The notes under the pieces: generated by a model
Seen by the model: only the letters and a program-made list of their open reading frames with translations
Databases searched by the model: none
What the model was told of the DNA's origin: nothing
In this document: positions 1 to 21,933 of the stretch, one piece after another
Position numbering within the stretch: position 1 is the first letter of the stretch
Layout: every line of letters starts with the position of its first letter
Source of the DNA: Candidatus Iainarchaeum sp.
GTDB taxonomy: Archaea; Iainarchaeota; Iainarchaeia; Iainarchaeales; DTGL01
DNA: 26,320 nt
Direction: 5' to 3'
NCBI GenBank assembly: GCA_038736825.1
Contig: JAVYME010000016.1
Location: forward strand, 1 to 26,320
Program-made: the position numbers and the translations under genes

Positions 1-1399
1 AGGCTTTTCTGATGCGGTTTTTTGCTTTTTCTGTTTTTGCTATGGCAAGCCATGAGCGCTTGCACTGTGGTTTTTTTGCCAAGCGGACTTCCACTATGTC
101 TCCGCTTTCCAGCTTTCGGTGCATTGGAGCGTTTTTTCCATTCACAATTGCGCTCAAAAATTTGTCGCCTATGTCTGAGTGTATTGCGTATGCAAAGTCT
201 AGGGCGGTTGCGCCTTCTGGAAGGGTGATTATTTCTTTTTTTGGGGTTAAAACGAATATTTCTGGTTCTCCAAAGACTAGTTTGAGGGAGCGCATTGTTT
301 CGCTTGTCTTTTTTATTTTTCTCTGCCATTCTATGAATTGTTTTACCCATGACAGTTTTTGGTCGAAATCTTGGTCTTTTTCTATTTGTTTGTAGCGCCA
401 GTGTGCTGCCAGCCCTTCTTCTGCATTGCGGTGCATTTCCATTGTGCGAATTTGCACTTCTGCTTTGCGTCCATGCCAGTCTATGACTGTGTGGATTGAC
501 TGGTAATTGTTTTTTTTGGGGTTTGCTATGTAGTCATCATATTCCCCTAATGGTTTGAATTTTAAGTGGACTAATCCGGCGGCACGATAGCAGTCTTCTA
601 CAGTGTTGCATATTATTCTTGCTCCGTAAAGGTCCCCTATTTCTCCAAATTTTTTGCCTTGAACAAACATTTTCCGGTAAATGCTGTTAAAGTTTTTTGC
701 TCTTGCTGAAACGCTTGCACTGATTTTTTCATTTTCAAGGAGTTTGGTGAGTTCCAGTTCAAGCTTTTTGGCGTTCAGTTCTCTTTGCGCTCTTTTTTCA
801 CCAACAAGCGACTTTATTTTTTCGTATTCTTTTGGCTTAAAGTATTTTAGGGCTAAATCCTGCAATTCCCATTCCATTTCATAGAGCCCCAGCTTGTGGG
901 CTATTGGGGCATAAACATCTCGGACAAGTTCTGCTAACGCGTTTTGTTTCTCTGCTGGGCGCTGGTCTATTTTTCTCATTTTGTCAAGCTGTGAGGCAAT
1001 CTCTACAAACAGGCTTCTGAAGTCCTTTGCTATTCCCATTATGACCTTGGATAGCTGTTGGTTTTCCAGTTCTCCATAATTGTTGTTTTTTACGCTTTTA
1101 AGCCTTGCAATGTCGTCCACGAGCCCAGTGATTTCTGAGCCAAGTTCCCTTTCCATTTGTGTTTTTTTTTCTGGAGTGTCAAAAAGGATTTCGTGAGCCA
1201 GAGCGGCTGCAATTGTGCTTGCATCAAATCCAAGTTTTGCAAGTATGAATGCTGTGTTTGCTTGGTGTTCTTGTTGTTCTCTGTTTTTGCTGTGCTGCAA
1301 AGAGAACTTGAATGCTTTTTCCACTAATGCAAAATCGCTTTTATTTAAGTGTTTGCATTGCGCTTTAAGTTCAGTGAACGACTGGTTTTTGTATTGCAT
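1..1399 (-). CDS. Long RelA/SpoT homologue (RSH), (p)ppGpp synthetase; N-terminal 466 aa visible (degenerate HD domain + synthetase domain + TGS domain); 3' part runs off the left window edge
   Basis: Absent from the ORF track because it has no stop in the window. The minus strand from ATG 1399-1397 is open to position 1; I checked every codon for stops. Translation starts MQYKNQSFTELKAQCKHLNKSDFALVEKAF. Synthetase motifs: RAKNFNSIYRKM, GDLYGARIIC, EYDDYIANPKKNNYQSIHTVI, EVQIRTMEMHRNAEEGLAAHWRYK. TGS motif: IFVLTPKKEIITLPEGATALDFAYAIHSDIGDKFLSAIVNGK. The HD region reads LAHEILFDT where canonical enzymes have LLHDxxEDT. Confidence 0.88.
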   Translation of the reverse strand, partial: MQYKNQSFTELKAQCKHLNKSDFALVEKAFKFSLQHSKNREQQEHQANTAFILAKLGFDASTIAAALAHEILFDTPEKKTQMERELGSEITGLVDDIARLKSVKNNNYGELENQQLSKVIMGIAKDFRSLFVEIASQLDKMRKIDQRPAEKQNALAELVRDVYAPIAHKLGLYEMEWELQDLALKYFKPKEYEKIKSLVGEKRAQRELNAKKLELELTKLLENEKISASVSARAKNFNSIYRKMFVQGKKFGEIGDLYGARIICNTVEDCYRAAGLVHLKFKPLGEYDDYIANPKKNNYQSIHTVIDWHGRKAEVQIRTMEMHRNAEEGLAAHWRYKQIEKDQDFDQKLSWVKQFIEWQRKIKKTSETMRSLKLVFGEPEIFVLTPKKEIITLPEGATALDFAYAIHSDIGDKFLSAIVNGKNAPMHRKLESGDIVEVRLAKKPQCKRSWLAIAKTEKAKNRIRKA

Positions 1400-1422
1400 A
1401 ATAATATTTTTGCTGGAAGTTG

Positions 1423-1434
1423 AATAAATATATG
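1423..1434 (-). promoter_or_regulatory. Putative TATA box for the RSH gene (minus-strand CATATATTTATT, about 25-35 nt upstream of the ATG; short or no leader)
   Basis: A/T-rich TATA-like element at archaeal promoter distance in the 139-nt divergent intergenic region. Confidence 0.35.
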
Positions 1435-1484
1435 CTTTCCTTGCAAGTCCTGAAATCCTTTTAACAGGCTGACTAAGGTTATGG

Positions 1485-1494
1485 CTTTAAATTG
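1485..1494 (+). promoter_or_regulatory. Putative TATA box for the tpiA operon (CTTTAAATTG), followed by the SD-like GGAGGT at 1527-1532
   Basis: TATA-like element about 49 nt upstream of ATG 1539. GGAGGT lies 6 nt before the start codon. Confidence 0.35.
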
Positions 1495-1538
1495 TTTTTT
1501 GGTATTATTCTTTCACTGCTGTTTTTGGAGGTATTCCA

Positions 1539-2213
1539 ATGAAGTTTCCGATTCTATTCATTAACTTTAAGTGCTATGAAGAGGCAACAGACAAAAAAGC
1601 AGTTGCTTTGGCAAAAAAAGCAGCATTTGCATCAAAAAAAACAAATTCAACGGTTGCCTTGGTGGTTCAAGCAACAGACATCAGGCTAGTGTCAAGCACA
1701 GTCACAATTCCAGTTTTTGCACAACACTTGGATCCAATAGAATACGGTTCTCACACAGGCCACATACTTCCTGAAGCAGTAAGGGCTGCTGGAGCCAAAG
1801 GCACTGTTTTGAATCACGCTGAAAACAAGCAAGAGAATTCTTTTCTGGAAAAGGCAATAGTTCGAGCTCACTCTGTTGGTCTTAAGGCAATGGTTTGCGC
1901 TGAAAGCACAGAGCGAGCGAGAGCGATTGCTGCCTTTTCTGAAAAACCGGATTTTATTGCAATAGAGCCCCCAGAACTAATAGGCGGCGACATTTCAGTT
2001 TCAACAGCCAAGCCAAGCCTTATAACTGACACCGTAATAGAGGTTAAAAAAATTGCACCAATTCCAGTAATAACTGGTGCTGGAATAAAGAATTCAGAAG
2101 ATGTCAGGATTGCCCTTGAACTTGGAACAAGCGGGGTTTTTGTTGCTTCAGGCATTGTCAAGGCGTCAGACCAAAAAAAGGCGATTTTAGAGTTGTTAAA
2201 GGGATTCAAATAG
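1539..2213 (+). CDS. tpiA: Triosephosphate isomerase, short archaeal type (224 aa)
   Basis: FINFKCYEE N-terminus, LNHAENK, IAIEPPELIGG and TGAGI motifs. The ~225 aa length is typical of archaeal TIM. Confidence 0.92.
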   Translation: MKFPILFINFKCYEEATDKKAVALAKKAAFASKKTNSTVALVVQATDIRLVSSTVTIPVFAQHLDPIEYGSHTGHILPEAVRAAGAKGTVLNHAENKQENSFLEKAIVRAHSVGLKAMVCAESTERARAIAAFSEKPDFIAIEPPELIGGDISVSTAKPSLITDTVIEVKKIAPIPVITGAGIKNSEDVRIALELGTSGVFVASGIVKASDQKKAILELLKGFK

Positions 2214-2245
2214 TTTTTTTGTTTAATTTGGGAAGGTGTTTTGTG

Positions 2246-3400
2246 ATGGAGCGCACAAGCGTTGAAGAAATAATGGATTCAAATTTTTTAAAGATTGGTG
2301 CAGAAGAGCGGGTTTCAAAGCTTTTCGGGCTTTTGAGTTCTGCCAAAAAACACCACGCGGTTGTGTTTGATTCCAACGGCGAATATGTTGGAATCACTTC
2401 TACAAGGGAAATGCTTCGCAGGCAAGCGGATTTTTCTCAAATGAAGGTAAGAAGCATTACGGACGAGAACAGGCCGCGCTTGACTAGGGACATGTCTTTA
2501 ATGAAAGCAGCTGAGTTAATGTATGTTTCAGACAGCCGCATTCTGCCAGTTATCGAGGAAAACAAAGTTTTTGGCGTTGTTTCAGCCAATGCAATAATCA
2601 AACAGGCTGCAGAGCGTTCACCGATTGCTTCAAAGAGAGCTAGAGATATTGCTTCAAAAAACCCAGTGGTTTTAAAGCAAACCGAATCAATTGGCAAGGC
2701 AATAACTTTAATGCGCGATAAAAACATAAAACGAGTGTTGGTGTCAGACAAAAAAGGCAATATTGTTGGCATTCTTTCATTACAGGAATTGATTGAAAAG
2801 CACTTGGTTCACGCCACTAGTGAACGGCTTCCCTTTGTTTCTGGCGCCAGAGGGCATTCCTCTGAAAGGGCTACTGCCTTAAAAATGCCGATTTCCAGTG
2901 AAATGTCCTCTTTTTTCATCACAGTCAAGCCAGACCAAAGAGTGGGGGCACTCCTTTCCGATATTGAGGGCGGCCGTGCCATAGTGCTTGTTGAAAAGGG
3001 CAAAGCAGTTGGAATTATCACCAGAAGAGATCTCTTGGAAGCCATTGTGAAGACTGGGGCTGTTGAGAGAAACATTCAGGTAGCCAATGTGCCAGCCCTA
3101 GATGAAATTGACAAGGCAAAAGTGGATAGCACAATCAATGCCTCTTATGACAGAGTCAAGAAAACGCTTGGAATGCCTTACTTTCTTTTAGTGCATTTCA
3201 AACAACATAAAGAGGCCGGTGCAAGAGTGAAGCACTCTGTTCATATTCGGGCTTCTGCTCCTGGAATGAATTTTAAGGCTGAAGCAACTTCTTGGAATGT
3301 GATCACCTCTTTACAGGATGCCTTAAGCGAGATTGAGAGGGAGATAAGGAAAGCCATTGGCAAAAAGCGCAAGAGTTTTAGAAAGGCAAGAGCCAAGTAA
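2246..3400 (+). CDS. Four-CBS-domain protein with a C-terminal HPF/RaiA (ribosome hibernation factor, S30AE)-like domain (384 aa from ATG 2246; the ORF opens at TTG 2219)
   Basis: Four CBS-like repeats, e.g. VVFDSNGEYVGITSTREML, LPVIEENKVFGVVSANAII, VLVSDKKGNIVGILSLQELI, VLVEKGKAVGIITRRDLL. The C-terminus (nt 3071-3397) has a beta-alpha-beta-beta-beta-alpha pattern resembling E. coli HPF: NIQVANV..DEIDKAKVDSTINASYDRVKK..YFLLVHFKQHK..KHSVHIRASAPG..NFKAEATSWN..VITSLQDALSEIEREIRKAIGKKRK. Confidence 0.8.
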   Translation: MERTSVEEIMDSNFLKIGAEERVSKLFGLLSSAKKHHAVVFDSNGEYVGITSTREMLRRQADFSQMKVRSITDENRPRLTRDMSLMKAAELMYVSDSRILPVIEENKVFGVVSANAIIKQAAERSPIASKRARDIASKNPVVLKQTESIGKAITLMRDKNIKRVLVSDKKGNIVGILSLQELIEKHLVHATSERLPFVSGARGHSSERATALKMPISSEMSSFFITVKPDQRVGALLSDIEGGRAIVLVEKGKAVGIITRRDLLEAIVKTGAVERNIQVANVPALDEIDKAKVDSTINASYDRVKKTLGMPYFLLVHFKQHKEAGARVKHSVHIRASAPGMNFKAEATSWNVITSLQDALSEIEREIRKAIGKKRKSFRKARAK

Positions 3401-3432: not shown

Positions 3433-3441
3433 TTTTTTTTT
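3433..3441 (+). terminator. T9 tract, likely archaeal oligo-T terminator of the tpiA/CBS operon
   Basis: GCGCTTTTTTTTT lies 30 nt after the stop codon. Confidence 0.4.
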
Positions 3442-3465: not shown

Positions 3466-3740
3466 GTGTGGGCGCGCCAAGGAATCGATTCTGCTTAAAA
3501 GGACAGAGTGGCCCACTGCATTCCTCGCTTCCGTTTCCCTCAAAGCATTTCACTTAAAGGCCACCGTTGCTTTCTTCCGAACCTGGCGGGTTCACCCTTA
3601 AGCAAAACCTAAGAGGACAGAAGTTCCTTGTAGTGCAATGGCTCCGGCCTTCCAAGCGAAAACCTTTCCCAAGGCTTCAGCTCCAGCGTGAAGCGGATTT
3701 CCGGTTACAGGGAACCGCTGCCTCCCCAGCCTAGCCCACA
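3466..3740 (-). ncRNA. Signal recognition particle RNA (archaeal 7S RNA, ~275 nt; ends approximate)
   Basis: The minus strand begins GUGGGCUAGGCUGGGGAGGCAGCGGUUCCCUGUAACCGGAAAUCCGC (archaeal Alu-domain-like 5' end). It contains the helix-8 signature GGGUGAACCCGCCAGGUUCGGAAGAAAGCAACGGUGGCC (plus coordinates 3559-3597). The 3' end GCGCGCCCACAC pairs with the 5' GUGGGC and is followed by UUUUU. This is a GC-rich island in an AT-rich context. Confidence 0.9.
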
Positions 3741-3760
3741 AATAATTTAGGGCGAGAGAA

Positions 3761-6554: not shown

Positions 6555-9500
6555 TTAATCTTTGCTTTTGTCTTTCACGTCTTCAATTCCCTTTTCAGTC
6601 ACTTGGTATAATGCTTCGCCGTCTGGAAGGCTTGGAGAGTCCACCAGTTTTGCTATTCTTTTTTCACCCTTGCTTTTCCTCAAGTACAAGCGAGTTTTGC
6701 TGTTGTGTACAACGAAACCATTCGCAATGTAGTTTTCTGTCAGAGGAACGCTCAAATCGTAAAGTGGCTGGTTATTTGTCATTTTTCTGATGGTTCTCAC
6801 TTTTTCAAATTTTACCTCTCCGTGGAGAATTGCCATTAAAAACTCTTTTTTATTTTTTAAGCTGTCTTCCTTTATTTCCTTGCCTTCGAGGGCTAGGGCT
6901 ATTTTTTCACCCTCTTGCAGGGTTATGTGCCTGTAATTTCGATAAGGAATTGGTTTTTTCTCTTTCTCGAAGGTTTTTGCTAAGAATTGCCATACCGCGC
7001 TTCTCTCCATTGGAATTATCCTTTTAGCTCTCTCTGGTTTGAAAGTGCAAATCCATTTTTGCAGTTTCTGGTTTTTGTCTGGAGCGCTCACCCCTATTAA
7101 TTCTCCATATTTAACAACGTTTTCGCTGAACAAGTCAAGCGAGTATGCTGGCTTGTTGTATCTAGTGAGCCTGGAACCAATTCCGAACCGCAATAATAGC
7201 AATTGAATAAATTGTAATATTTTTTTGTCGTTTTGGGCTATTGTTATCCTTCTTATCTTGCTGTCAATTGAACCTTCAGCGTCAACAAATCCTTTTATGA
7301 AGGCTTTCACTGTATCATCTTCTGATTTTGGCACAAGAACGACATAGTTTTTTTTAATCCATTGCATTAACTCCGTGATTTCCCTGCTGTTTATTCTCAT
7401 CCTAAAAGCATTTTTGCCATTGATTTTTGAAATTCGGCAATCACAGTTGAAAACTATCTTGAAGAGTTTTTGGTATTCTTTGAGCACTTCTTCTCTTGAG
7501 TCCTTGAATTCAATGTTCCTTTTTCCAATAAAACCGTCGCCAAGCATATAACCCGTTATTTGAGCAAGTTCTTTGGTGAAGAATTCTGGCATTCTCAGCA
7601 CCTTGTGTTTGTTTGAAGCGAGTGGCATGATGTTTTCCAAAATTTCTTCGCTTTGGCTCAATTCAGCGATCTTTTCCAGATTGCTTTTTGCTGTAGGACA
7701 ACCTTGATTCAAAACCCGCCTGAGCTGTCTTGGGGTTATGTCAAGGCAATGGCAGATTTCACCCCGGGTTTGTCCAATTTGGTTTAGGCATTGCTTGACT
7801 AGTTGGGCTCCATTTTTGCTGACCATTACAATTTGCACTGGCTCTTTGGCAGGTATTTTTTGGAGGGTGCCAAGCACTCGTATGCTGCCAGCATGCATCA
7901 AATAATCCCCTTTCCTTATTTGGCTGGCTTTAACTTCTTTAAGGCCAAATTTGCAGAGTTTGAAGAACCTGTGTTCTGGTGAAACAGTTATCTGGTGCCC
8001 GGTATCAATTTCATATACTGTTTTTATGTCATGTCTGACAGACCTTTGCATGGCCTGAGCGTTTACTATTTGCAGTTTATTTCTGTTGTCGACTGCTAAA
8101 AGGTTCCATTCGCTTAATTCTGCTATTGCCTGTATTGCGCCGCTGTTTGTTTGGACAAGGCTGTCGCCTGCAAGGCAAGCGTGTCCCACGATGTTGCCTC
8201 CAACTGGCGCTGTTGGGTCTCCAAACAAAATATCCGGTCTTTCCATTACTTGGTTTGTGACTAGGACAACCACGTTGTACATTTCCGCTATTTTCATTAG
8301 TTGTCGCATGTGTTTGTTGAGTTTTTGTTGTCTTTCAGCGAGTAAACCCCGCCCTATGTATTCTGACCTGAATTGTGAGGTGAGCGAGTCAACTATTACC
8401 AGTTTTATGTTTTTTTCTTTTATGATGTTTTCTGCTTTTTCAGCTAAAAGCATTTGGTGGTCTGCATTGTATGCTCTTGCCACATAAATGTTTTTTAGTG
8501 CTTTTTCTGGGTCAAGCCCTTTGGCTTTGGCTATTGCCATTATTCTTTCAGGCCTAAAGCTTGATTCTGAATCTATGTATAGCACGTTTCCGTTCAAGCC
8601 GCCTTTTTCTGGCGGAAGCTGTGCCATAACACACATTTGGAAGCACCATTGAGTGTTGTGTAGGAATATTGGCTTGTTGCCGCCTATAAAACTGTGTGTT
8701 TTTGGCACTACAAGGTCATACACCCAGTCATTGTATTGAATTTCTTTTTTTGTTGTGATTTTTTCCCATTGTATTTGTCCGTTTGCTAGGGTGATGAGAG
8801 TGTTTAAGTCTTTTTTGAGTTCTTTGTCTTCAAGCAGGCCATCTGTTTCTTTTTTTAGAACTGTGGCAATCTTTTCTGCAGTTGCACTTGACATGTGCCT
8901 TGTTATATAGTTTTGGAATGTTGATCTCTTTAGGCAGAGTTTTTCCCTGATTTCTGTTGTGCGAATTGGCATTACTGAGAGTGCTTTCATGACTTTACTG
9001 GGTGTTGGGTTTTCAAGCAGCCTTCTGGCTTCTTTTATTTCTCTTATTCTGGTTTTAAAGAATCCAAGCATGTCATTGAGGGTTTTTTCTGTCACGCGTT
9101 CCATGTGTGGGTGTTTTCCAATAAAGGTTACAAATGGGTTTTTGTAGCCTTTTTTGTACATGGCTTGCTTGCTCCACTTGTTGAAGTGCCTTCTTGAACC
9201 GCTTAGTTTTGAGTAAATGCGCCTGTAAAGTGGTTCAATGACTTTGATTGGAATGCAATATTTTGTTGAAAAATTTTTTTCTCCCGCTATTTTTTGGTTT
9301 TTTATGGTTTCACTCATTATTTTTTCTATTTTTTTCTTAGATTCAGTGTCTGTTATGTAAAGCACATAGTATTTTTTGCCTTGAGCGATTTTTTCTCTTA
9401 AAGTGACTTGAATGCCTAGGATTGCAAACAGGTATCCAAGTTGTTCGCTGAGCTTTTTTGATTTTGTGCACATGGAAACTGTCTTTGATATGTGTCCATC

Positions 9501-10526
9501 GCCTTCTAGATAGCCTTTCAAGAATGCTTCAATTGTGGCTTTTTGGCTTTGCATTATTTCTTCTGGGACAAATTTGTTGCCAGCAGTGCAATGTGCCAGT
9601 TCTTTAAGAAACTCTCTTGTCGGCTTTTTTAGTATTATTAGTCCTTTTTTCTTTACAAGCCTTGGCTTATACTTGAATTTTTTTTCAATGTAAGTCAAAA
9701 CTGTTTTCTGGATTTTTTCATTGTAATTTGTAATGCTCAACGGGTTTCCACAACCTTCTGCGACAAACAAGCCTAAAAAGTAGGCATCTTGTTTATCAAT
9801 CGTGTGCGAGCTTGGCGTTCTAATTATTTTTGGTGTTCCAATAAAGTCGCCTTCTTTAAGGAGCTCGGTGGATTTCCATTGGATTCCGTTTTCTGTCAAT
9901 GTTAGGAGGGGGTGAAAGCCAGTTAGTTTTATTATGCCGCCCCTTTCTGTTTCAATAAGTTGCAGGGTTTCCACTTTTTCTTTATACAGGTATTGTGCAT
10001 GGCTTTTCTCTATTTTTCCATACTTATTTATTCCAATTACTTTTACGGGTTTTTTCAGTTCAGCAATATAGCCGGAATCGAATTTTCTTTCGTTTACTGC
10101 ATACTTTTTGTAAAAATCCTCAATGGGTTCAAGGTGTGGTTTGTTAGGGTTCAAGTAGAATATGTTGGTGTCGCCTGAAATGCATTTCCCGCTCGCCATC
10201 TTGCCGTACACTTCTGTAATGCTTTGGGTTTCAAGTCCTCCGCCAAGCAATTCATCTAATTCTTTGCTGCCAGTGCGTATGCGCCCGATTTTTTCTCTTC
10301 TTTTTTGGATTGAATCTGCTGTTTCAAAGCCCATTTCGAGTGCATCCCTTGCTGCTTTTATTGCTTTTTCTGCTGTTTTTTCTCCAATTCCAGCCACTTC
10401 TGTTAATTCCATTGGGGATGCTACTGCAATGCTTTCAATGCTTCGATAGTTTGCTTTGAATAGTTTTTCTGCGGCTTGCGGGCCTATTCCGGGTAAATCG
10501 CTAACTTCTTTTATTTCTCCAGCCAT
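6555..10526 (-). CDS. radA: DNA repair and recombination protein RadA precursor with two inteins (1323 aa; predicted spliced RadA 321 aa)
   Basis: N-terminal HhH ([12 protein letters not shown]). Walker A GKMASGK|T is interrupted after the Lys. Walker B LVIVDS. C-terminal [26 protein letters not shown]. Extein segments are aa 1-114, 625-783 and 1276-1323. Confidence 0.95.
6702..8177 (-). mobile_element. RadA intein 2 (492 aa, aa 784-1275) with LAGLIDADG homing endonuclease; inserted at GGNIVGHA|SKTRLYL
   Basis: Block A CLAGDSLV. Block [20 protein letters not shown] motifs [12 protein letters not shown] and [13 protein letters not shown]. Terminal [21 protein letters not shown] followed by +1 Ser. 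Confidence 0.9.
8655..10184 (-). mobile_element. RadA intein 1 (510 aa, aa 115-624) with LAGLIDADG homing endonuclease; inserted in the ATPase P-loop (GKMASGK|TQ)
   Basis: Block [12 protein letters not shown]. Block [19 protein letters not shown] motifs [13 protein letters not shown] and [13 protein letters not shown]. Terminal [23 protein letters not shown] followed by +1 Thr. Confidence 0.9.
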
Positions 10527-10583
10527 TTTCTCACCATTTTTGTTTATTTTTTTGTTTAATCATTTAAATATGCTTTCGGGGGT

Positions 10584-11951
10584 TCAATTCCCCTGAATTT
10601 TTTCAATTGCTGTTTTTATTTCTTTTTCAAAGCTGAGGTTTTTCACTTCGTTTACTGTTAATTCAATTTCTTCTTTGTTGAGTGCACTCGCTTTTGTGAT
10701 TCCATTGAAAATGAATTTTTTTCCAAGAATGCTTCCTGAAATTTCTTCAATTATTTCCCTTGGGTTTTTTTCTTCAAGCATTTTTGTTATTTCCTGTGTT
10801 TGCATGTCCAGTATTTTTTCCGCGTTCCTGCCAAAGGCGCTTGCCCTTATTGTTCCAGAGCCATCATCTATTGCTATGGTTGCAACCAGCCTGTCTTTTG
10901 GTTTTGTTTCTCCGCATTTTTTGCAAAGCCATGAATTGCCTTCACTGTGTGCCTTTGAACCACATTTTGTGCAAACCTTGAATGCCAGTTTTCCCTTGTT
11001 TATTGCAGTTATTGTGCCAAGCACTTCAACTTGCTCGCCTGCCAGGATTTCTGCTATGTTCTTTCTTTTGAATTCTTTTTTGCTTATTTCGGTTAAGCTT
11101 GGAATTTCAAGTTTTGTTGTCGGGTTTTTAATTATTCTTGAGTTCCAGCCCAAGTGCAGTTCAATGCTGTTAAGCCCTTTTTTTGTGTAAGCGCCTTCAA
11201 TTTTTACCAGTTCTCCTGCTTCCAGCCGGTTTGCAGTCACTGCCAAATTGTTCCAAGCGGTTGCTCTTATTTGACCGCTTTCGTCTCCCAACAAAAAGCT
11301 CACTGCTTTTCTTTTCTCTCCTTCTTTCAAGAATTCGTTCATTTCAAAAACCCTTATCACTCTTGCAAACAAGTCAATGTTTTCCATTCCTTCGCTTAAG
11401 TTTGCAATTTTTAGCGTGCTTTTTTCTGTTTTTGGAAGTGCGTTTGTGTCTATTTTTGGATTGATTTCTATTTTTCCATCATATGGGATTGTTATTTGTA
11501 ATTGTCCCTTGTAGCTTGAAACAATGGCGTTTTTTAAGAGCAGGATTGTGCCTCTTTCAACCTTTTTTTCTTCTATTTCTGTTGCTTGTTCTCCCCACAA
11601 AGTTAAGGAGATTTCGCCTGTTTCGTCGCCCACTAAAAGCCTGCAGTATTTGCCCTTTTTTCCGTCTTTTTCAAATTCTTTTGCTGTATAAACGTGCAAC
11701 ACTTTTACTGGCAATTCTATTCCTTTCAAGCCTTCCTCCAGAGTGCTGATTTTTGTTTTTTCAGGGGTTTTTTCAAAGTCTATTTTTAAGCCGAGTTCTT
11801 TTGCCACCATGAATGCAGCTCCAGAATCTGTTAGCAGGCCGGTGAATTTTCTTTTTTTTTCCTCCACTAGTGCTAGTGCTTCTTTTTCGCTTTTGCCGCT
11901 TTCTTTGCATATTTTGGCTAGCAGTCCTGCAAAATCAGTGTTTTCCTCCAT
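10584..11951 (-). CDS. Replication protein A large subunit-like ssDNA-binding protein (multiple OB folds + zinc ribbon), RPA41-like
   Basis: N-terminal LLTDSGAAFMVAKELGL motif as in Thermococcales RPA41. Repeated OB-fold pattern (GDETGEISLTLWGEQA, GDESGQIRATAWNNLA, DDGSGTIRASAFGRNA). CxxC..CxxC zinc ribbon CTKCGSKAHSEGNSWLCKKCG. The ORF opens at TTG 11963; ATG 11951 preceded by GGGGG is preferred. Confidence 0.85.
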   Translation of the reverse strand: MEENTDFAGLLAKICKESGKSEKEALALVEEKKRKFTGLLTDSGAAFMVAKELGLKIDFEKTPEKTKISTLEEGLKGIELPVKVLHVYTAKEFEKDGKKGKYCRLLVGDETGEISLTLWGEQATEIEEKKVERGTILLLKNAIVSSYKGQLQITIPYDGKIEINPKIDTNALPKTEKSTLKIANLSEGMENIDLFARVIRVFEMNEFLKEGEKRKAVSFLLGDESGQIRATAWNNLAVTANRLEAGELVKIEGAYTKKGLNSIELHLGWNSRIIKNPTTKLEIPSLTEISKKEFKRKNIAEILAGEQVEVLGTITAINKGKLAFKVCTKCGSKAHSEGNSWLCKKCGETKPKDRLVATIAIDDGSGTIRASAFGRNAEKILDMQTQEITKMLEEKNPREIIEEISGSILGKKFIFNGITKASALNKEEIELTVNEVKNLSFEKEIKTAIEKIQGN

Positions 11952-13551: not shown

Positions 13552-14196
13552 ATGAGATTGCCATTGTTCAACAGGCTGAAAAATCGCTTGCACAAGGATA
13601 CAGCCCTCTTACAGGACGAGATTGTGGATATTGTCTATTCGGTTGAGCCATCAGCGGTTTTACATGGCGGTACCGCTGTCTGGCGCTGTTATTCAAGCAA
13701 TCGCTTTTCTGAAGACTTGGATTTTTACCTTGGCTCAGGAAAGGCCTTCAAGGAAAAATTTTTGCCCGTTATTGAATCCCGCAATCTCTCGTTGCAAAAA
13801 TTCAAGCAAACAAAGACAACAATTTTTTCCAAAATTGCAATTGGCAATGCTGAAGTTCGGTTTGAGGCAGCACTGAGAAAACCCGATAAAATTGTTGTTG
13901 CAAGCTATGAAAAGGTTGATGGAACCTTTTTGAGTATTTTCACGCTTGCACCTGAAGATTTGTTGCTTGAAAAAATTTCTGCGTTTGAAAACAGGCGTTT
14001 GGCTCGCGACCTTTATGATATTGTTTCCCTGCTTCCATTTGTGAGGGATGAAACTGCAGTTAAAAGCAAAGCACTTGCCTTTGTTGAGTCTGCCGAAAAG
14101 CCTGTTGATGAAAAGGCGTTAAAGGCACTGGTTTTTTCTGGTGCAATTCCATCTTTTGAACAGGCTATTGCCATTATAAAGAGGCGGTTCAAGTGA
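13552..14196 (+). CDS. Nucleotidyltransferase, AbiEii/AbiGii toxin family (DUF1814/COG2253-like), short form (214 aa)
   Basis: Pol-beta NTase motif LHGGTAVWRCYSSNRFSEDLDFYL. C-terminal family motif RRLARDLYDIVSLL. Confidence 0.8.
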   Translation: MRLPLFNRLKNRLHKDTALLQDEIVDIVYSVEPSAVLHGGTAVWRCYSSNRFSEDLDFYLGSGKAFKEKFLPVIESRNLSLQKFKQTKTTIFSKIAIGNAEVRFEAALRKPDKIVVASYEKVDGTFLSIFTLAPEDLLLEKISAFENRRLARDLYDIVSLLPFVRDETAVKSKALAFVESAEKPVDEKALKALVFSGAIPSFEQAIAIIKRRFK

Positions 14197-14777
14197 AATA
14201 TGCTTTAACTGTGAGGGAGCATTTTTCAAAGCAAGCGGTTTTCAGCGTTCGCGACATTTCAATCTTTTTTTCAACTAGAGGGATTTCCAAAGGGTATGCG
14301 CGTCTTTTTCTTCATAATCTTTTGAAAAAAGGCGAAATAGTTCGTATTTCCAGGGGTGTTTATTCTTTTGAAAGGGATTCCTTGCTTTGGGGGTTTGCTT
14401 TCTCGCCTTTCTATTATGGGTTGCAGCAAGCCCTTTCTTTGCAGAATTTGTGGGAGCAAGAGAGCATTCCAGTGATAATTACACCGCGCAAAATCCGAAC
14501 TGGTTTGAGAGAGATTGGCAGCGAGAGAATTCTTGTAAGGCGGATTGACAGAAAGCTTTTCTTTGGCTTTGAAATGCTGCCTTATTATGGTCGCTTTGTT
14601 CCTGTTTCGTGCCTTGAAAAAACCCTTTTAGATTTTTTTTATTTTAGGGAGCCATTGCCAAAAAACACATTGAAGGGTTTATTGCAAAAGGCGGACAGAA
14701 AAAATTTGAATTCTTTGCTTAAAAAATACCCTGTCCATTTCAGGAAATCATTTGAAAAGAAAATTGCAAGTGTTTAG
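14193..14777 (+). CDS. AbiEi-like antitoxin / wHTH transcriptional regulator (COG5340-like), 194 aa
   Basis: N-terminal wHTH FSVRDISIFF..GYARLFLHNLLKKGEIVRISRGVYSF. C-terminal VPVSCLEKTLLDFFYF. The GTG start overlaps the upstream TGA (GTGA). Confidence 0.72.
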   Translation: MKYALTVREHFSKQAVFSVRDISIFFSTRGISKGYARLFLHNLLKKGEIVRISRGVYSFERDSLLWGFAFSPFYYGLQQALSLQNLWEQESIPVIITPRKIRTGLREIGSERILVRRIDRKLFFGFEMLPYYGRFVPVSCLEKTLLDFFYFREPLPKNTLKGLLQKADRKNLNSLLKKYPVHFRKSFEKKIASV

Positions 14778-17040: not shown

Positions 17041-18984
17041 GTGGAATTAATTGGCTGGGAAGTGGAAGCAATGGGTTTGGCTGAGTGGAGCGAGCAAAAG
17101 GGCTTTTTTGCAAAAAGCACTCCAAAAAAAGCTGCCACCACTGATTCTGAAGCAGAATGGAATAAAATTGAACAGGCTCTTTTGCGAAGGAAAGAGCAAG
17201 CCAATTCAATGGAAGAACCAGACAGCGCGCTTATTTCTCTCATAAACCAGCTTGATTCAGAAATAAAATCCAAAAGGCAGGGAACTGCCAGCGAGCAGTC
17301 GTTGCAGCATTCCAAAGAATTGCTGGAAATGATTGATGAGCGCTTGCATGGCACAGCCTGGCCTGTAAAGGAATTGCAAAAAAAATTAAAGAAGCCGGCT
17401 TTGAGTGAAATGGAGGAAATTGTTCCTGTGGCTGAAAAAAAACCGGAGGAAACCAAAATGGGCTCAAGTTTTGATGTCAAAAAAGAAGAGGAAAGCATAA
17501 GGGCTGCCATGGAGGCAAAATTGAAGGCAGCCGAGCAAGAGCAAGCAAAACAGTCAAGCAAGACTGCAATCGAGCAACCTTCAAATATTGAAACCCATAA
17601 AAGCAATGCTTCAATTGTTGAGGATGACTTGTTTGAACCTGAAGAGCCTCCAAAGGATGCTCCGGAACCATTAGATGAAGCAGAAACAGAGGTTTTCGAA
17701 GAAGAATTTGAAGAAGTGGAGGAAAAGCCAGAGGAAAAGCCAAAACCTGAAAAAAAAGAAAAAAGAGAGGAAAAGCCAAAAAAAGAAACCTTGCGAGATT
17801 TCAAGGGCAAAATAGATGTTGAAAAAGCAGAATTTCTTTACAAAGCCTCAGTAAACCAATTGCTTAAAGCACAACTAGAAAATGGGGCAATTATTCCAAC
17901 AACAAGCGAGAAAAGCTATTTGAATGTTTATCCGCGCGATCTAGCCTTTTGCGCTCTAGCACTTGTAAAAGCTGAAAGGTTTGATGAAGCCAAAAAGGCT
18001 TTAGAGTTTGCCTTTAAATACCAAGACAGAAAAACAGGCAGTTTTCCGCAAAGATGGGATGAGGCTGGCAACAATACTGGGTATAAGCCAGTGCAGCCTG
18101 ATGCTGCTGCCTTAGTTCTTTATGCTTTTGCAGAATATGTTTTGGACAAAAACAACACTGATTTTGCAGAAATGAATTGGGACAGAATTGAGAAAACAGT
18201 TGATTTCTTGAATTCAAAAATTGTTTCTGAAAAAGACTTGGTTTTTGCTCCATCCTCAATCCATGAATTTCCTCCAATGGAGCAAGGGTACGAGATTTGG
18301 GCAAACGCAACCTGTTGTGCAGCATTCAAAAACCTTTCCAGGGTTGCAGAAAAAATAAGGGTTGACTATGCTCCGCTCAGCAAAGAGAATGTCTTAAAGG
18401 ACGCCATCCTGCAATACATGTGGAATTCCAGAAAACAGTGCTTTGTGAAAGCAATAAGGATTGGCGAGTCAAGCTCAGTAATGCTTTGGCCTGATGCCTC
18501 TCCCTTAGCACTGTCCTTTTTTGATGTTTTTCCCACAAACGACAAAAAAATGGCTTCAACAGTCAAACTAATTGAGGAAAAACTGTGGCATAAATCCTTT
18601 GGGGGAATTTCCAAGTTTGGCTTTGTTGAAGGCATAGAGAAAGGCGGCTTTGGAGCAAGCCCATTCTTCACACTCTTGTTGTCAGACTATTTCATTAAAA
18701 CAGGGGACAGAGAAAAAGCCGAAAAGTTTTTGGGCTGGGTGATAAGCATTGGCCAGTCAGGCTCTCTCCCAGAACACATTGCCACCAAAGAAGACTTTGA
18801 AGCATTTGCATCAGATTTCAGTGATGCTGGTCTTCTAAATCGGAACACAATGAAGCAAATAAATGCTGCAAGGGAAAGCCAAGAATTCAAGCAAGGAGTT
18901 GCCCGCATAACCGAGCCATTTTCAATGGCGCACGCAGCATTCATAATTGTTTGGAAAAACTATAAGGAAAAATTCCTAAAGTGA
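17041..18984 (+). CDS. Glycoside hydrolase family 15 (glucoamylase/glucodextranase-like) with a ~250-aa acidic, K/E-rich disordered N-terminal extension
   Basis: The C-terminal ~385 aa has (alpha/alpha)6 GH15-like motifs: ENGAIIPTTSEKSYLNVYPRDLAFCALAL, PVQPDAAALVLYAF, YEIWANATC, GGISKF, SLPEHI. The ORF opens at GTG 17041; ATG 17071 (MGLAEW) is an equally plausible start. Confidence 0.78.
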   Translation: MELIGWEVEAMGLAEWSEQKGFFAKSTPKKAATTDSEAEWNKIEQALLRRKEQANSMEEPDSALISLINQLDSEIKSKRQGTASEQSLQHSKELLEMIDERLHGTAWPVKELQKKLKKPALSEMEEIVPVAEKKPEETKMGSSFDVKKEEESIRAAMEAKLKAAEQEQAKQSSKTAIEQPSNIETHKSNASIVEDDLFEPEEPPKDAPEPLDEAETEVFEEEFEEVEEKPEEKPKPEKKEKREEKPKKETLRDFKGKIDVEKAEFLYKASVNQLLKAQLENGAIIPTTSEKSYLNVYPRDLAFCALALVKAERFDEAKKALEFAFKYQDRKTGSFPQRWDEAGNNTGYKPVQPDAAALVLYAFAEYVLDKNNTDFAEMNWDRIEKTVDFLNSKIVSEKDLVFAPSSIHEFPPMEQGYEIWANATCCAAFKNLSRVAEKIRVDYAPLSKENVLKDAILQYMWNSRKQCFVKAIRIGESSSVMLWPDASPLALSFFDVFPTNDKKMASTVKLIEEKLWHKSFGGISKFGFVEGIEKGGFGASPFFTLLLSDYFIKTGDREKAEKFLGWVISIGQSGSLPEHIATKEDFEAFASDFSDAGLLNRNTMKQINAARESQEFKQGVARITEPFSMAHAAFIIVWKNYKEKFLK

Positions 18985-19208: not shown

Positions 19209-19388
19209 GATAGATTATTGCATTATTGTTTTTAAAAGGCGATTTGTGCTTGCCGCATGCTTTTTAATCCTTTAGGCATCTATTTTTATTGAAAGGTGGA
19301 TTCTTTTTCTTTGCTTTCTTTTTGAGAGCAAAGGCTTCGCAAGAAGCATCCTTTCATTTTTTCAACAAAATTGTTCACGGGTGTTTTA

Positions 19389-19964
19389 ATGGGAGTGTTT
19401 GATGTTCCTGCAAGCGATTTGATTGAAGAGATTGCAGTGGATTTAAGGGAAAAATTTGGGGTTGAAAAACCGCCTTTTGCTGATTATGTCAAAACAGGCG
19501 TTTGCAAGGAGCGCGCTCCCCAAAGAGAGGACTGGTATTATGTAAGGGTTGCCTCGATTTTTTACCGCATTTTCAAGGAAGGCCCGCTTGGAGTGGGTTC
19601 ACTGAGAACCTATTATGGTGGCAGAAAAGCTCGCGGAGTCAAACCGCACAAGTTTGAAAAGGCTTCAGGCAAAATAATAAGGAAAGGCATTCAAGACCTG
19701 GAAAAAATTGGCTTTTTGAAAAAAGCTCCAAAGGGCAGAATTGTTAGCCCCAAAGGGCACTCTTATTTGGTTAAAAAAGCAAAAGAGGTAATGGCTCTTC
19801 TCCCGCAAAAAAGGATTGAAAGGGAAAAGCGCAGGATTGAACGGTTTGAAAAAATGGAGCGCTTGCGATTGGAACAAGCTAAAAGGGGAGAACCAGAAGC
19901 AGGACCAAAAGAAAAATTCAAGAAAAAAGGAAAAAGCGAAAAACAGAAAAAGGAGGAGGAATAA
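19389..19964 (+). CDS. rps19e: 30S ribosomal protein S19e with a ~53-aa K/E/R-rich C-terminal extension
   Basis: VFDVPASDLIEEIA, EDWYYVRVASIFYRI, GVGSLRTYYGGRK, IIRKGIQDLEKIGF. The ORF opens at TTG 19371; ATG 19389 fits the family N-terminus. Confidence 0.9.
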   Translation: MGVFDVPASDLIEEIAVDLREKFGVEKPPFADYVKTGVCKERAPQREDWYYVRVASIFYRIFKEGPLGVGSLRTYYGGRKARGVKPHKFEKASGKIIRKGIQDLEKIGFLKKAPKGRIVSPKGHSYLVKKAKEVMALLPQKRIEREKRRIERFEKMERLRLEQAKRGEPEAGPKEKFKKKGKSEKQKKEEE

Positions 19965-19972
19965 AGCTGGCG

Positions 19973-20308
19973 GTGTCTTTTTTGGCTGACCCTGAACTAG
20001 AACAAATAAAGGCAATAAAAATGGAGGAATTGCAGCAACAGTTAGCCCAACAACAGGCTGAAGCCGAAAAGAAAGCGCTTGCAGAGCAAAGGATTGAATT
20101 GCTTTTGAAAAAGCTTCTTTCACCTGAAGCAAAAGCAAGATTGAAAAACGTGAAACTTGTAAACCAAGAATTGTACTGGCTGGCAGTACAGCAAGTCTTG
20201 CTTTTGTTTCGCGCCGGCCATGTTTCAGGACAAATAACTGAAGCGCAAGTGAAAATGATTCTTGAAAAGCTTTCTGCAAAAAGGGAAATAAGAATAAAGA
20301 GGAAATGA
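19973..20308 (+). CDS. PDCD5/TFAR19-family DNA-binding protein (MTH1615-like)
   Basis: ELEQIKAIKMEELQQQ..LSPEAKARLKNVKLV..ITEAQVKMILEKLSAKREIRIKRK closely parallels the archaeal PDCD5 homologue. GTG start. Conserved position after S19e. Confidence 0.88.
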   Translation: MSFLADPELEQIKAIKMEELQQQLAQQQAEAEKKALAEQRIELLLKKLLSPEAKARLKNVKLVNQELYWLAVQQVLLLFRAGHVSGQITEAQVKMILEKLSAKREIRIKRK

Positions 20309-20574
20309 AAATGAGTTCAACCAAAGAAGAAAAATTCAAAGAGTTTTTGATAAGTGAAAGGAAAAAGATTGGTTCAGGCATTACCTCTGCCCCCGTTTGG
20401 ATTATGCAGAAAGCCGGAAAGCGTGTTTACAACAGGCGGCAGGCCAGGAGCTGGAAAGAAGCAGATTTTGGCTCTCGTTACAGGAAAAGAAAGTTGAACG
20501 AGAAAAGGCAGAGGCGCGGAAAACCGGTTAAAAATCCAGCTAAACAGTTCAACGTGAAAGAGGTGAACAAGTGA
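20305..20574 (+). CDS. rpl39e: 50S ribosomal protein L39e with N- and C-terminal basic extensions (89 aa vs about 50 typical)
   Basis: The core SAPVWIMQKAGKRVYNRRQARSWKE matches L39e (VPAWVMLKT..KRRHWRR). ATGA overlap with the upstream gene. Conserved cluster position. Confidence 0.8.
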   Translation: MKMSSTKEEKFKEFLISERKKIGSGITSAPVWIMQKAGKRVYNRRQARSWKEADFGSRYRKRKLNEKRQRRGKPVKNPAKQFNVKEVNK

Positions 20575-20996
20575 TGGCTGAAAAAATGATTGTTTCGCTT
20601 GTGCCAGTTTTTTTTGCGCCAAAAAGCAAGAGAGCCAAGAGAGCAATAAAAAGGATAAGAAGTTGCCTGGCAAAGCGCTTTCATGTTGAAGAAAAAGCAG
20701 TGTTCATTTCTGCTGGAATAAACCGTGCGGTTTTTGAAAAGGGCTTTCAAAAAATTCCAAGGCGCTTGGAAATAATGGTTGAATCCGAAAAAGACAGGGT
20801 TTTGGCTTTTTTGAAAGGCGAAAAATTGCCTGAAAAAAAAGAAGCCAAAAAGGAAAAAGCGGAAAAAAAGCCAAAAGAGGAATCAAAAGAGGAAAGAGAG
20901 GAAAGAGAAGAACTTGAGAGAAGAAAAAGGGAAAAACACGAAAAAGAACTAGCTGCAGAAAAAACCGCAATCAAAATGAAAACTGACAGGGTGTAA
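20574..20996 (+). CDS. rpl31e: 50S ribosomal protein L31e with a ~55-aa K/E-rich C-terminal extension
   Basis: APKSKRAKRAIKRIRSCLAKRFHVEEKAVFISAGINRAVFEKGFQKIPRRLEIMV matches the L31e core. Start is ATG 20574 or GTG 20571, overlapping the L39e stop. Confidence 0.88.
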   Translation: MAEKMIVSLVPVFFAPKSKRAKRAIKRIRSCLAKRFHVEEKAVFISAGINRAVFEKGFQKIPRRLEIMVESEKDRVLAFLKGEKLPEKKEAKKEKAEKKPKEESKEEREEREELERRKREKHEKELAAEKTAIKMKTDRV

Positions 20997-21002
20997 GCGC
21001 TG

Positions 21003-21662: not shown

Positions 21663-21724
21663 ATGTCTCAAACCATAAAAAACCATTCATTCATTTATTT
21701 TTTGGAATTCTGGTTGGTGATAGC

Positions 21725-21904: not shown

Positions 21905-21933
21905 ACAATAAGTATAGGCTTTGAGGTGAAGTT

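Follow-up and report, generated by a model that had tools for sequence, protein, structure and literature searches.

A lineage-restricted gene cluster joining a bacterial-derived long RSH to a tpiA-hibA operon in Iainarchaeota

At the left end of the window, by which is meant the whole 26,320 nt stretch of DNA that was analysed, a gene for a long RelA/SpoT homologue (RSH) and a two-gene tpiA-hibA operon stand head-to-head, all of these parts coming from known families. The best explanation of the locus as a whole, advanced here tentatively, is that it is part of a vertically inherited DPANN (Iainarchaeota) gene cluster built around a bacterial-derived long RSH. The linkage itself is real, lineage-restricted and of single origin, and the conserved arrangement of tpiA, RSH, a KaiC-like gene and an HPF-domain gene has not been described previously. 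The contig is archaeal, from the Iainarchaeota/"Diapherotrites" (DPANN): it also carries an archaeal SRP RNA, an intein-bearing RadA, RPA and GGGP synthase, and the RSH exactly matches an NCBI protein labelled 'Candidatus Diapherotrites archaeon'.

RSH reads on the minus strand from an ATG at 1399 and runs off the left end of the contig, leaving the N-terminal 466 of about 620 amino acids (positions 1-1399). A divergent control region of 139 nt (1400-1538) separates it from tpiA on the plus strand (1539-2213), which encodes an archaeal-type triose-phosphate isomerase (TIM) of 224 aa (NF003302, 261 bits against a cut-off of 132; Pfam TIM, E = 7e-33). After a 32 nt spacer (2214-2245) comes hibA (2246-3400), encoding a HibA/AHA-family ribosome hibernation factor of 384 aa, and a T9 run at 3433-3441, 33 nt past its stop codon, is likely to be an archaeal oligo-T terminator. 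The original prediction had assigned all three products correctly, including a weak HPF call, and both the 139 nt divergent region and the 32 nt gap are as it described them.

The Pfam domains of the RSH are HD_4 (aa 25-172), RelA_SpoT (aa 233-338) and TGS (aa 381-438, nt 86-259 of the minus strand; PF02824, E = 1.8e-19). Its score of 445 bits against TIGR00691 falls under the cut-off solely because the gene is truncated at the contig end; full-length relatives are 605-625 aa long and carry RIS and ACT domains. Residue alignments to structure-solved Rel and RelA reveal a pseudo-hydrolase HD_4 domain (884-1327, minus strand) with decayed catalytic motifs: AHEILFDT (1175-1198) stands in place of LLHDVVEDT, and IASQLDKMRK (971-1000) in place of LADRLHNMRT. 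The (p)ppGpp synthetase domain (386-703, minus strand) retains ARAKNFNSIYRKM, DLYGARI, EYDD-YIANPKKNNYQSIHT and EVQIRTMEMH, with alanine at the position of the GRxK motif where most RSHs have glycine. In a motif table of the clade, variable residues replace the HD..ED and DxxxN hydrolase motifs in every member, while the GRxK, DxxxxR, YQSxHT and ExQxRT synthetase motifs are kept throughout; the other DPANN RSH type retains both sets. From these motifs the bacterial-derived enzyme is predicted to be synthetase-only, its hydrolase site decayed and its synthetase site intact.

The decayed HD motifs, intact synthetase and acidic EXDD-type motif (EYDD), rather than RXKD, recall the monofunctional long RSH RelA of Escherichia coli, as do the TGS, zinc-finger/RIS and ACT regions seen in full-length relatives. 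Orthology with RelA was considered and rejected (NF008124, 298 against a cut-off of 728), the hydrolase having decayed independently. Unlike RelA, the clade lacks the alpha-helical domain of about 110 aa between TGS and RIS, and it is encoded in an archaeon, with ribosomes unlike those of bacteria on which RelA docks. The best overall matches are to bifunctional Rel proteins (E = 1e-94 to 1e-105), and the N-terminal domain order is that of the Streptococcus equisimilis, Bacillus subtilis and Mycobacterium enzymes (1vj7, 6yxa, 8fr8), from which the window RSH differs in having lost HD, ED and D...N, in its acidic EYDD where they have a basic RFKD, and in being about 100 aa shorter. A survey of this gene family in these phyla had already reported RelA/SpoT in 69% of Diapherotrites and judged it bacterial in origin (Li et al., mSystems 2021, PMC8407392); the two RSH types with intact or decayed hydrolase, the missing alpha-helical domain and the tpiA, KaiC-like and HPF neighbourhood are not part of that survey. 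Given this report and the publication of the HibA/AHA ribosome-hibernation family in 2026 (PMC13324472; PMC12934967), the parts are not novel in themselves.

The hibA product is a genuine member of that family, combining an AMPK-gamma-like CBS tetrad with an HPF domain. It matches the ribosome-bound HibA of Pyrococcus abyssi over its full length (9sr9_H; phmmer 1e-24, profile 2e-45), as it does 9l96_a (4.6e-42), and an AF2 model of the whole protein has a pLDDT of 78.7. Pfam detects CBS in four stretches (E = 1.6e-34) across the four-domain CBS module (aa 1-270, nt 2246-3055), whose best Foldseek matches are the CBS tetrads of SriA/B, AMPK-gamma and Dri. Within it the AF2 model has a disordered loop (aa 189-207, nt 2810-2866) placed as the 'PTC loop' of HibA, and CBS4 bears the canonical ribose-binding motif GIITRRD (nt 3011-3031), in which G256, T259 and D262 are invariant in alignments with relatives. 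The Pfam S30AE/YfiA match to the HPF domain (nt 3056-3400) is weak (20.5 bits, E = 8e-4, below the gathering score). The best 34 PDB matches found by Foldseek with the model of this domain (pLDDT 82.3) are all bacterial or chloroplast HPF/RaiA/YfiA/pY proteins (TM 0.40-0.65, best E = 1e-5).

Compared with P. abyssi HibA (PAB0961, PDB 9sr9; Madru et al., Nat Commun 2026, PMC13324472) and Haloferax volcanii AHA (HVO_2384; Souza et al., bioRxiv 2026, PMC12934967), the window protein aligns end to end, shares the four-CBS disc, the long CBS3 loop, the CBS4 ribose-binding motif and the C-terminal HPF/RaiA domain, and is of similar size (384 against 392-406 aa). It differs in being only about 25-30% identical, in its DPANN host and in its binding of ribosomes and AMP being a prediction; its gene is the second in a tpiA operon adjoining RSH, and in close relatives the CBS module was either lost or never acquired.

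The tpiA-hibA spacer has a T7 run (2214-2220) immediately past the stop codon, followed by a Shine-Dalgarno sequence, GGAAGGTG (2231-2238), a layout shared with the related locus L001. The distance from tpiA to the HPF-domain gene is 114 nt in L101, 45 in L002, 28 in L014, 9 in L012 and 4 in L010, while in L015 the genes overlap; spacing between overlap and 45 nt, found in seven of the eight measured loci, makes an operon likely in most relatives.

For the control region, 1400-1538 was aligned with the same region of L001 and L002, whose RSHs are 80% and 63% identical to that of the window. Three conserved islands emerge and no others: the two TATA-like elements named by the original prediction, both present in the window and conserved in these two relatives, and the Shine-Dalgarno of tpiA (GGAGG, 1527-1531, plus strand; CCTCC in the reverse-complement alignment). 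The TATA/BRE-like 15-mer AGCATATATTTATTC (1422-1436, minus strand) is identical in all three loci despite spacer indels and sits about 23-37 nt upstream of the RSH start codon, which would imply a leaderless or near-leaderless mRNA; more divergent loci have an A/T box at a comparable distance. The TATA-like island AATTTAAAG (1485-1493, plus strand), also invariant, is about 46-54 nt upstream of the tpiA ATG, which would leave a short leader bearing the Shine-Dalgarno. With a GC content of 32%, compared with 41% over the whole window, the intergenic region is rich in A and T; a TATA-like string is by itself unremarkable there, and the weight rests on conservation. The spacer between the two TATA islands carries indels of 0-45 nt. 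Two back-to-back archaeal promoters may therefore fill the 139 bp, producing an RSH mRNA with almost no leader and a tpiA-hibA mRNA that has one.

Seventeen distinct related loci were compared, counts being taken over those readable at each position. Their conserved core is tpiA beside RSH with a KaiC-like ATPase gene downstream: tpiA is present in 14 of 14 loci, and the KaiC-like gene directly follows RSH in 15 of 16, on the same strand after about 10-280 nt (mostly 50-110); in L035 it lies 5.6 kb away. Single genes have entered between tpiA and RSH in L010 (PMT) and L022 (CorA), breaking the shared control region. An HPF-domain gene comes next after tpiA in nine of 13 loci, all on branches keeping Iainarchaeota-type flanking genes; since all the loci of the clade descend from one ancestral arrangement, these are not nine independent observations. 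Three of the nine (L010, L015 and L021) lack the CBS module and have in the same slot HPF-only genes of 113-119 aa that share homology with the window protein's C-terminal domain (E = 1e-21 to 5e-24). Unlike the window gene with its full CBS module, these are of the standalone HPF/RaiA-like kind, which is reported in 8% of archaea, chiefly DPANN and Nitrososphaerales (PMC13324472). No HPF gene follows tpiA in the four readable loci outside these branches (L016, L098, L099 and L035), which also lack the RPA-RadA and SerRS flanks, so the HPF linkage decays alongside general synteny; nor was it found at L017, of the other DPANN RSH type. Hence the proposed linkage holds in related genomes, RSH, tpiA and an HPF-domain gene remaining together down to about 39% RSH identity, but the HPF-domain gene occupies second place in the tpiA operon only on Iainarchaeota-type branches. 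The CBS-HPF gene is a less persistent partner of RSH than tpiA and the KaiC-like ATPase. About 75 RSH loci from bacteria or elsewhere served as controls: in their flanks BLAST found no TIM, and an HMM built from archaeal HPF domains only, which bacterial hpf may escape, found no archaeal-type HPF.

The RSH-adjacent tpiA is archaeal-type in most loci and bacterial-type in L014 and in L016, L098 and L099. Among 124 bacterial-type TIMs these two sets rank each other only 118th-123rd, and they are 39-41% identical, compared with 55-69% for archaeal-type TIM pairs at equal RSH distance; furthermore, L101 groups near L014 in the RSH tree yet has an archaeal-type tpiA. This implies that the slot was refilled twice, in apparently independent replacements, both of which the core of tpiA, RSH and KaiC-like gene outlasted. 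Reuse of the promoter already in place at tpiA can explain such in situ displacement, which alone is no proof of selection for adjacency to RSH.

A bacterial RSH inserted once, in an ancestor, beside an existing tpiA-hibA operon, and held there by slow rearrangement with no functional or regulatory tie, would be a historical accident, a reading that is possible, if somewhat doubtful. The housekeeping flanks (RPA, RadA and GGGP synthase; SerRS, Trm56 and TFE) are kept over the evolutionary range of the HPF gene, and precisely those loci with altered flanks lack that gene; HibA family members are reported from 47% of archaeal genomes, of which nearly all have no RSH (PMC13324472), and a divergent HibA (35% identity, L100) is found in an unrelated context with neither tpiA nor RSH near. 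Accident fits poorly, however, with the core persisting where the outer flanks differ wholly (L016, L098, L099 and L035), with foreign tpiA twice refilling the same slot, and with the HPF-domain gene keeping its slot behind tpiA while the CBS module was gained or lost at least twice. The unit might instead consist of RSH, the KaiC-like ATPase and TIM, with HibA a bystander, for example if an alarmone or ATPase signal were coupled to flux through lower glycolysis or to purine economy in a cell with reduced metabolism. That no partners other than tpiA and the KaiC-like gene are clade-wide, HPF-less loci included, that the same-strand spacer from RSH to the KaiC-like gene is short and that tpiA was twice replaced in situ would suit this reading, which is nevertheless improbable: promoter reuse accounts for the displacement without RSH, the KaiC-like gene lies well away from RSH in L035, and we know of nothing that links (p)ppGpp biochemically to TIM or to single-domain KaiC homologues.

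The original prediction pictured a co-transferred or co-regulated growth-arrest module, and in its strongest reading the CBS region would sense the alarmone. Co-transfer is unsupported, given the bacterial type of the RSH as against an archaeal-type tpiA and an archaeal HibA family. Direct sensing, in which (p)ppGpp made by RSH binds the CBS tetrad of HibA and toggles hibernation, draws on the role of CBS modules as nucleotide sensors, on the canonical, invariant CBS4 motif and on the adjacency of the two genes. It is nonetheless very improbable, and (p)ppGpp binding by the module unlikely, because an HPF-only protein maintains the linkage in three lineages, making the module dispensable for it, and because the P. 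abyssi CBS module, which binds AMP (Kd 12 uM) and more weakly ADP and ATP, gives no ITC signal with GTP or GMP (PMC13324472). AHA was likewise solved with two bound AMP molecules, and HibA proteins are common in archaea that have no RSH.

Under the preferred reading of a vertically inherited cluster, RSH, to judge from its motifs, would make (p)ppGpp and keep a TGS-RIS-ACT sensor region, while HibA, as shown for its homologues, would use its HPF domain to plug the small subunit's mRNA channel and tRNA sites, its CBS module docking on the large subunit and reading adenylate charge. As in bacteria with (p)ppGpp-dependent induction of rmf and hpf, the organism has both an alarmone synthetase and an HPF-domain factor, in this case even at a single locus. 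In bacteria stringent control of hibernation factors is transcriptional, acting via RNA polymerase/DksA or GTP pools on unclustered genes; to our knowledge archaeal RNA polymerase has no ppGpp site. A working link between RSH and the hibernation operon can only be inferred, and its most likely form, if any, would be shared or coordinated expression of parallel starvation responses. Coordinated expression of RSH and tpiA-hibA is plausible; transcriptional control of archaeal hibernation factors is no given, as Haloferax AHA levels are similar in exponential and stationary phases (PMC12934967).

The left end of the window carries the RSH gene, which runs on the minus strand from an ATG at 1399 to the left window edge, where the protein is cut at 466 aa; Pfam places HD_4 at residues 25-172, RelA_SpoT at 233-338 and TGS at 381-438, and the fragment scores 445 bits with the RelA/SpoT family model TIGR00691. 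As Met1 is invariant across an alignment of 30 homologues, the start codon is secure. On the opposite strand and 139 nt away lies tpiA (1539-2213, plus), which encodes a triose-phosphate isomerase (TIM) of the archaeal subfamily (NF003302, 261 bits against a cut-off of 132; bacterial models, at most 18 bits). It is followed after 32 nt by hibA (2246-3400, plus), encoding 384 aa with four CBS stretches and a weak C-terminal match to S30AE/YfiA. The original prediction of a stringent-response and hibernation module at this locus had all of its coordinates, gap sizes and gene calls right, as judged from ORFs, Pfam and family models. The host can be identified as a DPANN archaeon because the window contains an archaeal SRP RNA (3466-3741, minus; Rfam RF01857, 140 bits), convergent with the hibA terminator region, and further archaeal genes such as those for RPA and GGGP synthase, while the RSH fragment exactly matches an NCBI protein from a MAG labelled 'Candidatus Diapherotrites archaeon' and has an 80%-identical relative, from Lac Pavin sediment, in a 'Candidatus Iainarchaeum' MAG. 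Archaeal genes on both sides, and the recurrence of the same arrangement in many independent assemblies, exclude bacterial contamination or a chimeric contig.

The order of the RSH domains (HD-type, RelA_SpoT synthetase, TGS) is that of the long RSHs (Pfam, TIGR00691). The RIS/zinc-finger and ACT domains (PF28438, PF13291), corresponding to the region beyond the window edge, are found in P0002, the 80%-identical full-length relative, and in all members of the hydrolase-dead DPANN clade to which the window protein belongs, and the CC...H...C zinc-finger/RIS residues are invariant among full-length relatives. Full-length RSHs of this clade are only 605-625 aa in length. No match to the alpha-helical (AH) domain PF19296 was found in any DPANN RSH of 605-650 aa; it was matched in bacterial RSHs of 718-761 aa, and in the AH region between TGS and RIS the alignment sets about 22 residues of the clade RSH against approximately 110 of Mycobacterium Rel.

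The two catalytic sites were assessed by aligning the protein residue by residue with the Rel of Mycobacterium and Bacillus and the RelA of E. coli, and from a motif table of 37 sequences. At the hydrolase site AHEILFDT replaces LLHDVVEDT, such that the HD metal ligands and the ED dyad are gone, and IASQLDKMRK replaces LADRLHNMRT at the D...N site. These positions vary freely from lineage to lineage throughout the clade, a pattern typical of decay, which implies that the hydrolase site has degenerated clade-wide; the window RSH thus lacks the catalytic HD, ED and D...N residues of a hydrolase-active bifunctional Rel/SpoT. The synthetase motifs are present (ARAKNFNSIYRKM, DLYGARI, NNYQSIHT and EVQIRT), with the R, K, D, Y, Q, H and E residues all retained; the window copy has Ala for the first Gly of GRxK, which most relatives keep. 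On these motifs the protein would be a synthetase-only variant and probably an active synthetase.

An acidic EXDD-type motif is characteristic of monofunctional RelA, and the window RSH has EYDD at the site of the basic RFKD of bifunctional Rel. Orthology with the RelA of beta- and gammaproteobacteria is nevertheless ruled out by a score of 298 bits with NF008124 against a cut-off of 728, and the clade is separate from the sampled bacterial sequences in a neighbour-joining tree of RSHs. The likeness to RelA, in both the dead hydrolase and the EXDD motif, is convergent and reflects an independent loss of hydrolase function in a long RSH. With this loss comes the question of how the alarmone would be cleared from these cells. 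A second type of DPANN RSH, labelled Woesearchaeota or Nanoarchaeia (e.g. the protein P0085), retains the hydrolase motifs. In 2011, long RSHs were not known from any archaeon (PMC3153485); RelA/SpoT proteins of predicted bacterial origin have since been reported in 69% of Diapherotrites and 42% of Woesearchaeota (PMC8407392).

The hibA product has four tandem CBS domains at its N-terminus (Pfam CBS, four stretches, E = 1.6e-34), which form four beta-alpha units in the AF2 model, and the top matches in a Foldseek search with the whole model are the CBS tetrads of SriA/B, AMPK-gamma and Dri. As this search is dominated by the CBS tetrad, and the library is older than the HibA entries, the C-terminal domain was also searched alone. 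Pfam S30AE scores a sub-threshold 20.5 bits on this domain (threshold 23.7). Its model (pLDDT 82.3) consists of a strand at 10-13, a helix at 20-41, strands at 46-57, 60-71 and 74-82 and a helix at 85-116, and its top 34 PDB matches are all HPF, RaiA, YfiA or pY proteins of bacterial or chloroplast origin. Among solved structures, the best matches of the hibA product extend over the full length and are chains from ribosome complexes, namely 9sr9_H (392 aa; residues 5-370 at E = 1e-24 by phmmer and 4-372 at E = 2e-45 with a profile) and 9l96_a (406 aa; phmmer 4e-22, profile 4.6e-42). The former matches P. abyssi HibA as published (392 aa, with a CBS module at 1-269 and the C-terminal domain at 270-392). 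This 2026 account defines HibA by four CBS domains and an HPF/RaiA-like domain (PMC13324472), and an independent study of Haloferax volcanii named the same family AHA and describes two AMP molecules on its CBS tetrad (PMC12934967). Membership of the window protein in the HibA/AHA family is well supported by its sequence and predicted fold. In CBS3, a loop at residues 189-207 with pLDDT below 50 lies at the aligned position of the 'PTC loop', its sequence not being conserved with P. abyssi, and the ribose-binding motif GIITRRD is conserved in CBS4 in the alignments. By analogy with the family, the window HibA would be expected to bind AMP and the ribosome, at the 30S mRNA channel and the tRNA sites.

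The conservation of this neighbourhood was studied across 17 distinct loci whose RSH belongs to the hydrolase-dead clade, with identity to the window protein ranging from 80% down to about 31%. A genome-collection scan with P0002 returned no more than two Iainarchaeum and four bacterial loci, a number too small for statistics; an alignment of 30 clade sequences, scanned against metagenomes, added the clade loci L018, L021, L022, L024 and L035, and approximately 70 of its 80 loci, being bacterial or other RSHs, served as a negative control. In all 14 readable loci tpiA lies on the divergent side of RSH, with a single gene inserted between them in two cases (PMT in L010, CorA in L022). Directly downstream of RSH on the same strand, 15 of 16 loci have a single-domain KaiC-like ATPase of 245-258 aa (TIGR03877-like, 180-193 bits; PF06745), found at 9930-10670 in the related locus L001 and at the equivalent place in the others, a place that lies outside the window, beyond its left end; the exception is L035, where it is 5.6 kb from RSH. 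The scans gave about 75 loci with bacterial or other RSHs, whose flanks contained neither type of TIM and, with an HMM built from archaeal sequences only, no archaeal-type HPF.

An HPF-domain gene comes next after tpiA in nine of 13 readable loci, hence the linkage of RSH, tpiA and HPF on which the original prediction depended is retained in related genomes. The CBS-HPF form is found in the window, L001, L002, L012, L014 and L101, and an HPF-only form of 113-119 aa, with no CBS module, occupies the slot in L010 (5248-5595), L015 (6807-7148) and L021 (389-745). These short proteins are homologous to the C-terminal domain of the window HibA (blastp 1e-21 to 5e-24 for L010 and L015; HPF HMM 1e-42 to 1e-52). 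Two further co-locations of RSH and HPF are implied by contigs of equal length for the protein pairs P0003/P0124 and P0007/P0128. An HMM search of the flanks found no HPF-domain gene at L016, L098, L099 or L035, the first three of which are flanked by pilus genes and LysRS (L098 being labelled Micrarchaeota by NCBI) and the last by SUF genes, and none was found at L017, a hydrolase-intact RSH locus. A k-mer protein search with HibA yielded only 13 close relatives and gave a single sample of the tpiA-hibA adjacency in RSH-free archaea, at L100, where the two genes are not adjacent. All nine HPF-positive loci go back to a single ancestral arrangement, and most share outer flanks of RPA-RadA on one side and SerRS-Trm56-TFE on the other. 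The four HPF-negative loci have lost both of these outer flanks as well, and the adjacency of HPF and RSH is indistinguishable on this sample from ordinary synteny inertia. The core of divergent tpiA, RSH and downstream KaiC-like gene, by contrast, outlasts its surroundings.

One way in which this core varies is in the origin of its tpiA. Bacterial-type TIM genes, encoding PRK00042/PRK13962-like proteins of 244 aa, lie by RSH in L014 (7226-7960), L016 (7145-7879), L098 (7174-7899) and L099 (6715-7458), and all other clade loci have the archaeal type. The TIMs of L014 and the L016 group are 39-41% identical, against 55-69% for archaeal-type pairs at the same RSH distance; each set ranks 118th-123rd of 124 in the other's bacterial-type TIM ranking; and L101, near L014 in the RSH tree, carries an archaeal-type tpiA. 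This implies that the slot was probably refilled twice by foreign genes, through two independent displacements in situ. In L014 the foreign tpiA sits between hibA and RSH with neither disturbed. As proof of a joint function of RSH and tpiA these events were downgraded, since reuse of a resident promoter explains displacement in situ; they show that the expression context of tpiA matters, and not necessarily that adjacency to RSH is selected.

Alignment of the divergent region from the window, L001 and L002 reveals conserved islands at 1422-1436 (AGCATATATTTATTC), 1485-1493 (AATTTAAAG) and 1527-1531, the last being the tpiA Shine-Dalgarno sequence, with indels of 0-45 nt in the spacer between the first two. 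Both of the TATA-like elements previously noted in the 139-nt region fall on the first two islands. In archaea the centre of the TATA box lies about 26 nt upstream of the transcription start site. Because the island positions fit this geometry, we infer start sites that would make the RSH mRNA near-leaderless and give tpiA a leader of about 20 nt. The spacing between tpiA and the HPF-domain gene differs by lineage (overlap, 4, 9, 28, 32, 35, 45 or 114 nt), and as the genes overlap or are separated by short spacers they are likely to be co-transcribed. Inside this presumed operon, a T7 run directly after the tpiA stop codon (2214-2220), with a T6-7 run also in L001, could act as a partial archaeal terminator setting the TIM:HibA ratio; a T9 run (3433-3441) follows hibA. 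In L015, the tpiA-RSH intergenic region (7832-8000) contains a direct repeat of about 22-24 nt (GTTTAAAAAAGTTGATGATTACA), of which the second copy has two more A's and each copy has a TATA-like core.

The reading we favour, at somewhat less than an even chance, is that RSH and tpiA-hibA are parallel starvation-response genes in a compact, probably co-regulated locus built on the core of tpiA, RSH and the KaiC-like gene, in which RSH would act as an alarmone synthetase and HibA would act as published for its family. Nearly as likely is that the arrangement is purely historical, with no functional tie between the genes, as the shared ancestry of the HPF-positive loci would allow; the persistence of the core beyond its surroundings bears on the other side. 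That core, whose tpiA and KaiC-like ATPase are the most faithful neighbours of RSH across the clade, could also, with a rather low probability, belong to a metabolic module centred on TIM and KaiC with HibA as a bystander.

It is very unlikely that the CBS module of HibA senses (p)ppGpp directly, as the strongest form of the original prediction would have it. The CBS tetrad is a nucleotide-binding module in this family, but three lineages have an HPF-only protein in the slot after tpiA, and the P. abyssi study reports that its CBS module binds AMP (Kd 12 uM), ADP and ATP in ITC, with no signal for GTP or GMP (PMC13324472). The suggestion that the three genes were transferred together from bacteria also finds no support, as only RSH is of bacterial type, tpiA is archaeal, and HibA is of an archaeal family whose HPF domain is ancient in archaea.

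Both protein families, and the presence of RSH in DPANN, have been published. In the literature searched there was no account of the hydrolase-dead, AH-less RSH clade, nor a description of its conserved tpiA/KaiC-like/HPF neighbourhood, of HPF-only variants in the slot after tpiA, or of repeated tpiA displacement. It is a rather slim prospect that some DPANN run a genuine alarmone pathway, in which an AH-less synthetase-only RSH would act with a KaiC-like ATPase and have its product or its expression coupled to TIM and an HPF-type hibernation factor. If so, loss of the AH domain would represent remodelling of RSH for the archaeal ribosome, and the locus would encode an archaeal counterpart of the bacterial axis from stringent response to hibernation. 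Support for the functional link comes from synteny within a single lineage of uncultured organisms. As the AHA preprint considers the (p)ppGpp system absent in archaea (PMC12934967), a useful test case is offered by an archaeal lineage in which the genes for a hibernation factor and a probably active alarmone synthetase share one compact locus, and RSH, HibA, the HPF-only variants, TIM and the KaiC-like ATPase are clonable candidates for a direct test of archaeal (p)ppGpp use and of the targets of this molecule. Should the adjacency reflect inertia, a HibA-family gene in DPANN has still been correctly annotated, and the locus warns against inferring function from single-lineage synteny.

Elsewhere in the window, RadA (6555-10526, minus) is extended to 1323 aa by intein-splicing and LAGLIDADG homing-endonuclease domains, whose two and three Pfam stretches respectively suggest more than one intein; in L002, L010 and L012 the orthologues have no intein and are 314-317 aa long. 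An AbiEii toxin/AbiEi antitoxin pair (13552-14777, plus) lies between the GGGP synthase and epimerase genes, and as these are directly adjacent in the same three loci, the pair is a type IV toxin-antitoxin/abortive-infection module that was inserted recently. An ORF of 647 aa (17041-18984, plus) has no Pfam match at E<=1e-4. The window that holds the SRP RNA also has a gene for an FtsY-like SRP receptor (22414-24120), preceded by a string of translation-related genes (19371-22401, plus) for eS19, a dsDNA-binding (PDCD5-like) protein, eL31, aIF6 and prefoldin, of which aIF6 is a ribosome anti-association factor.
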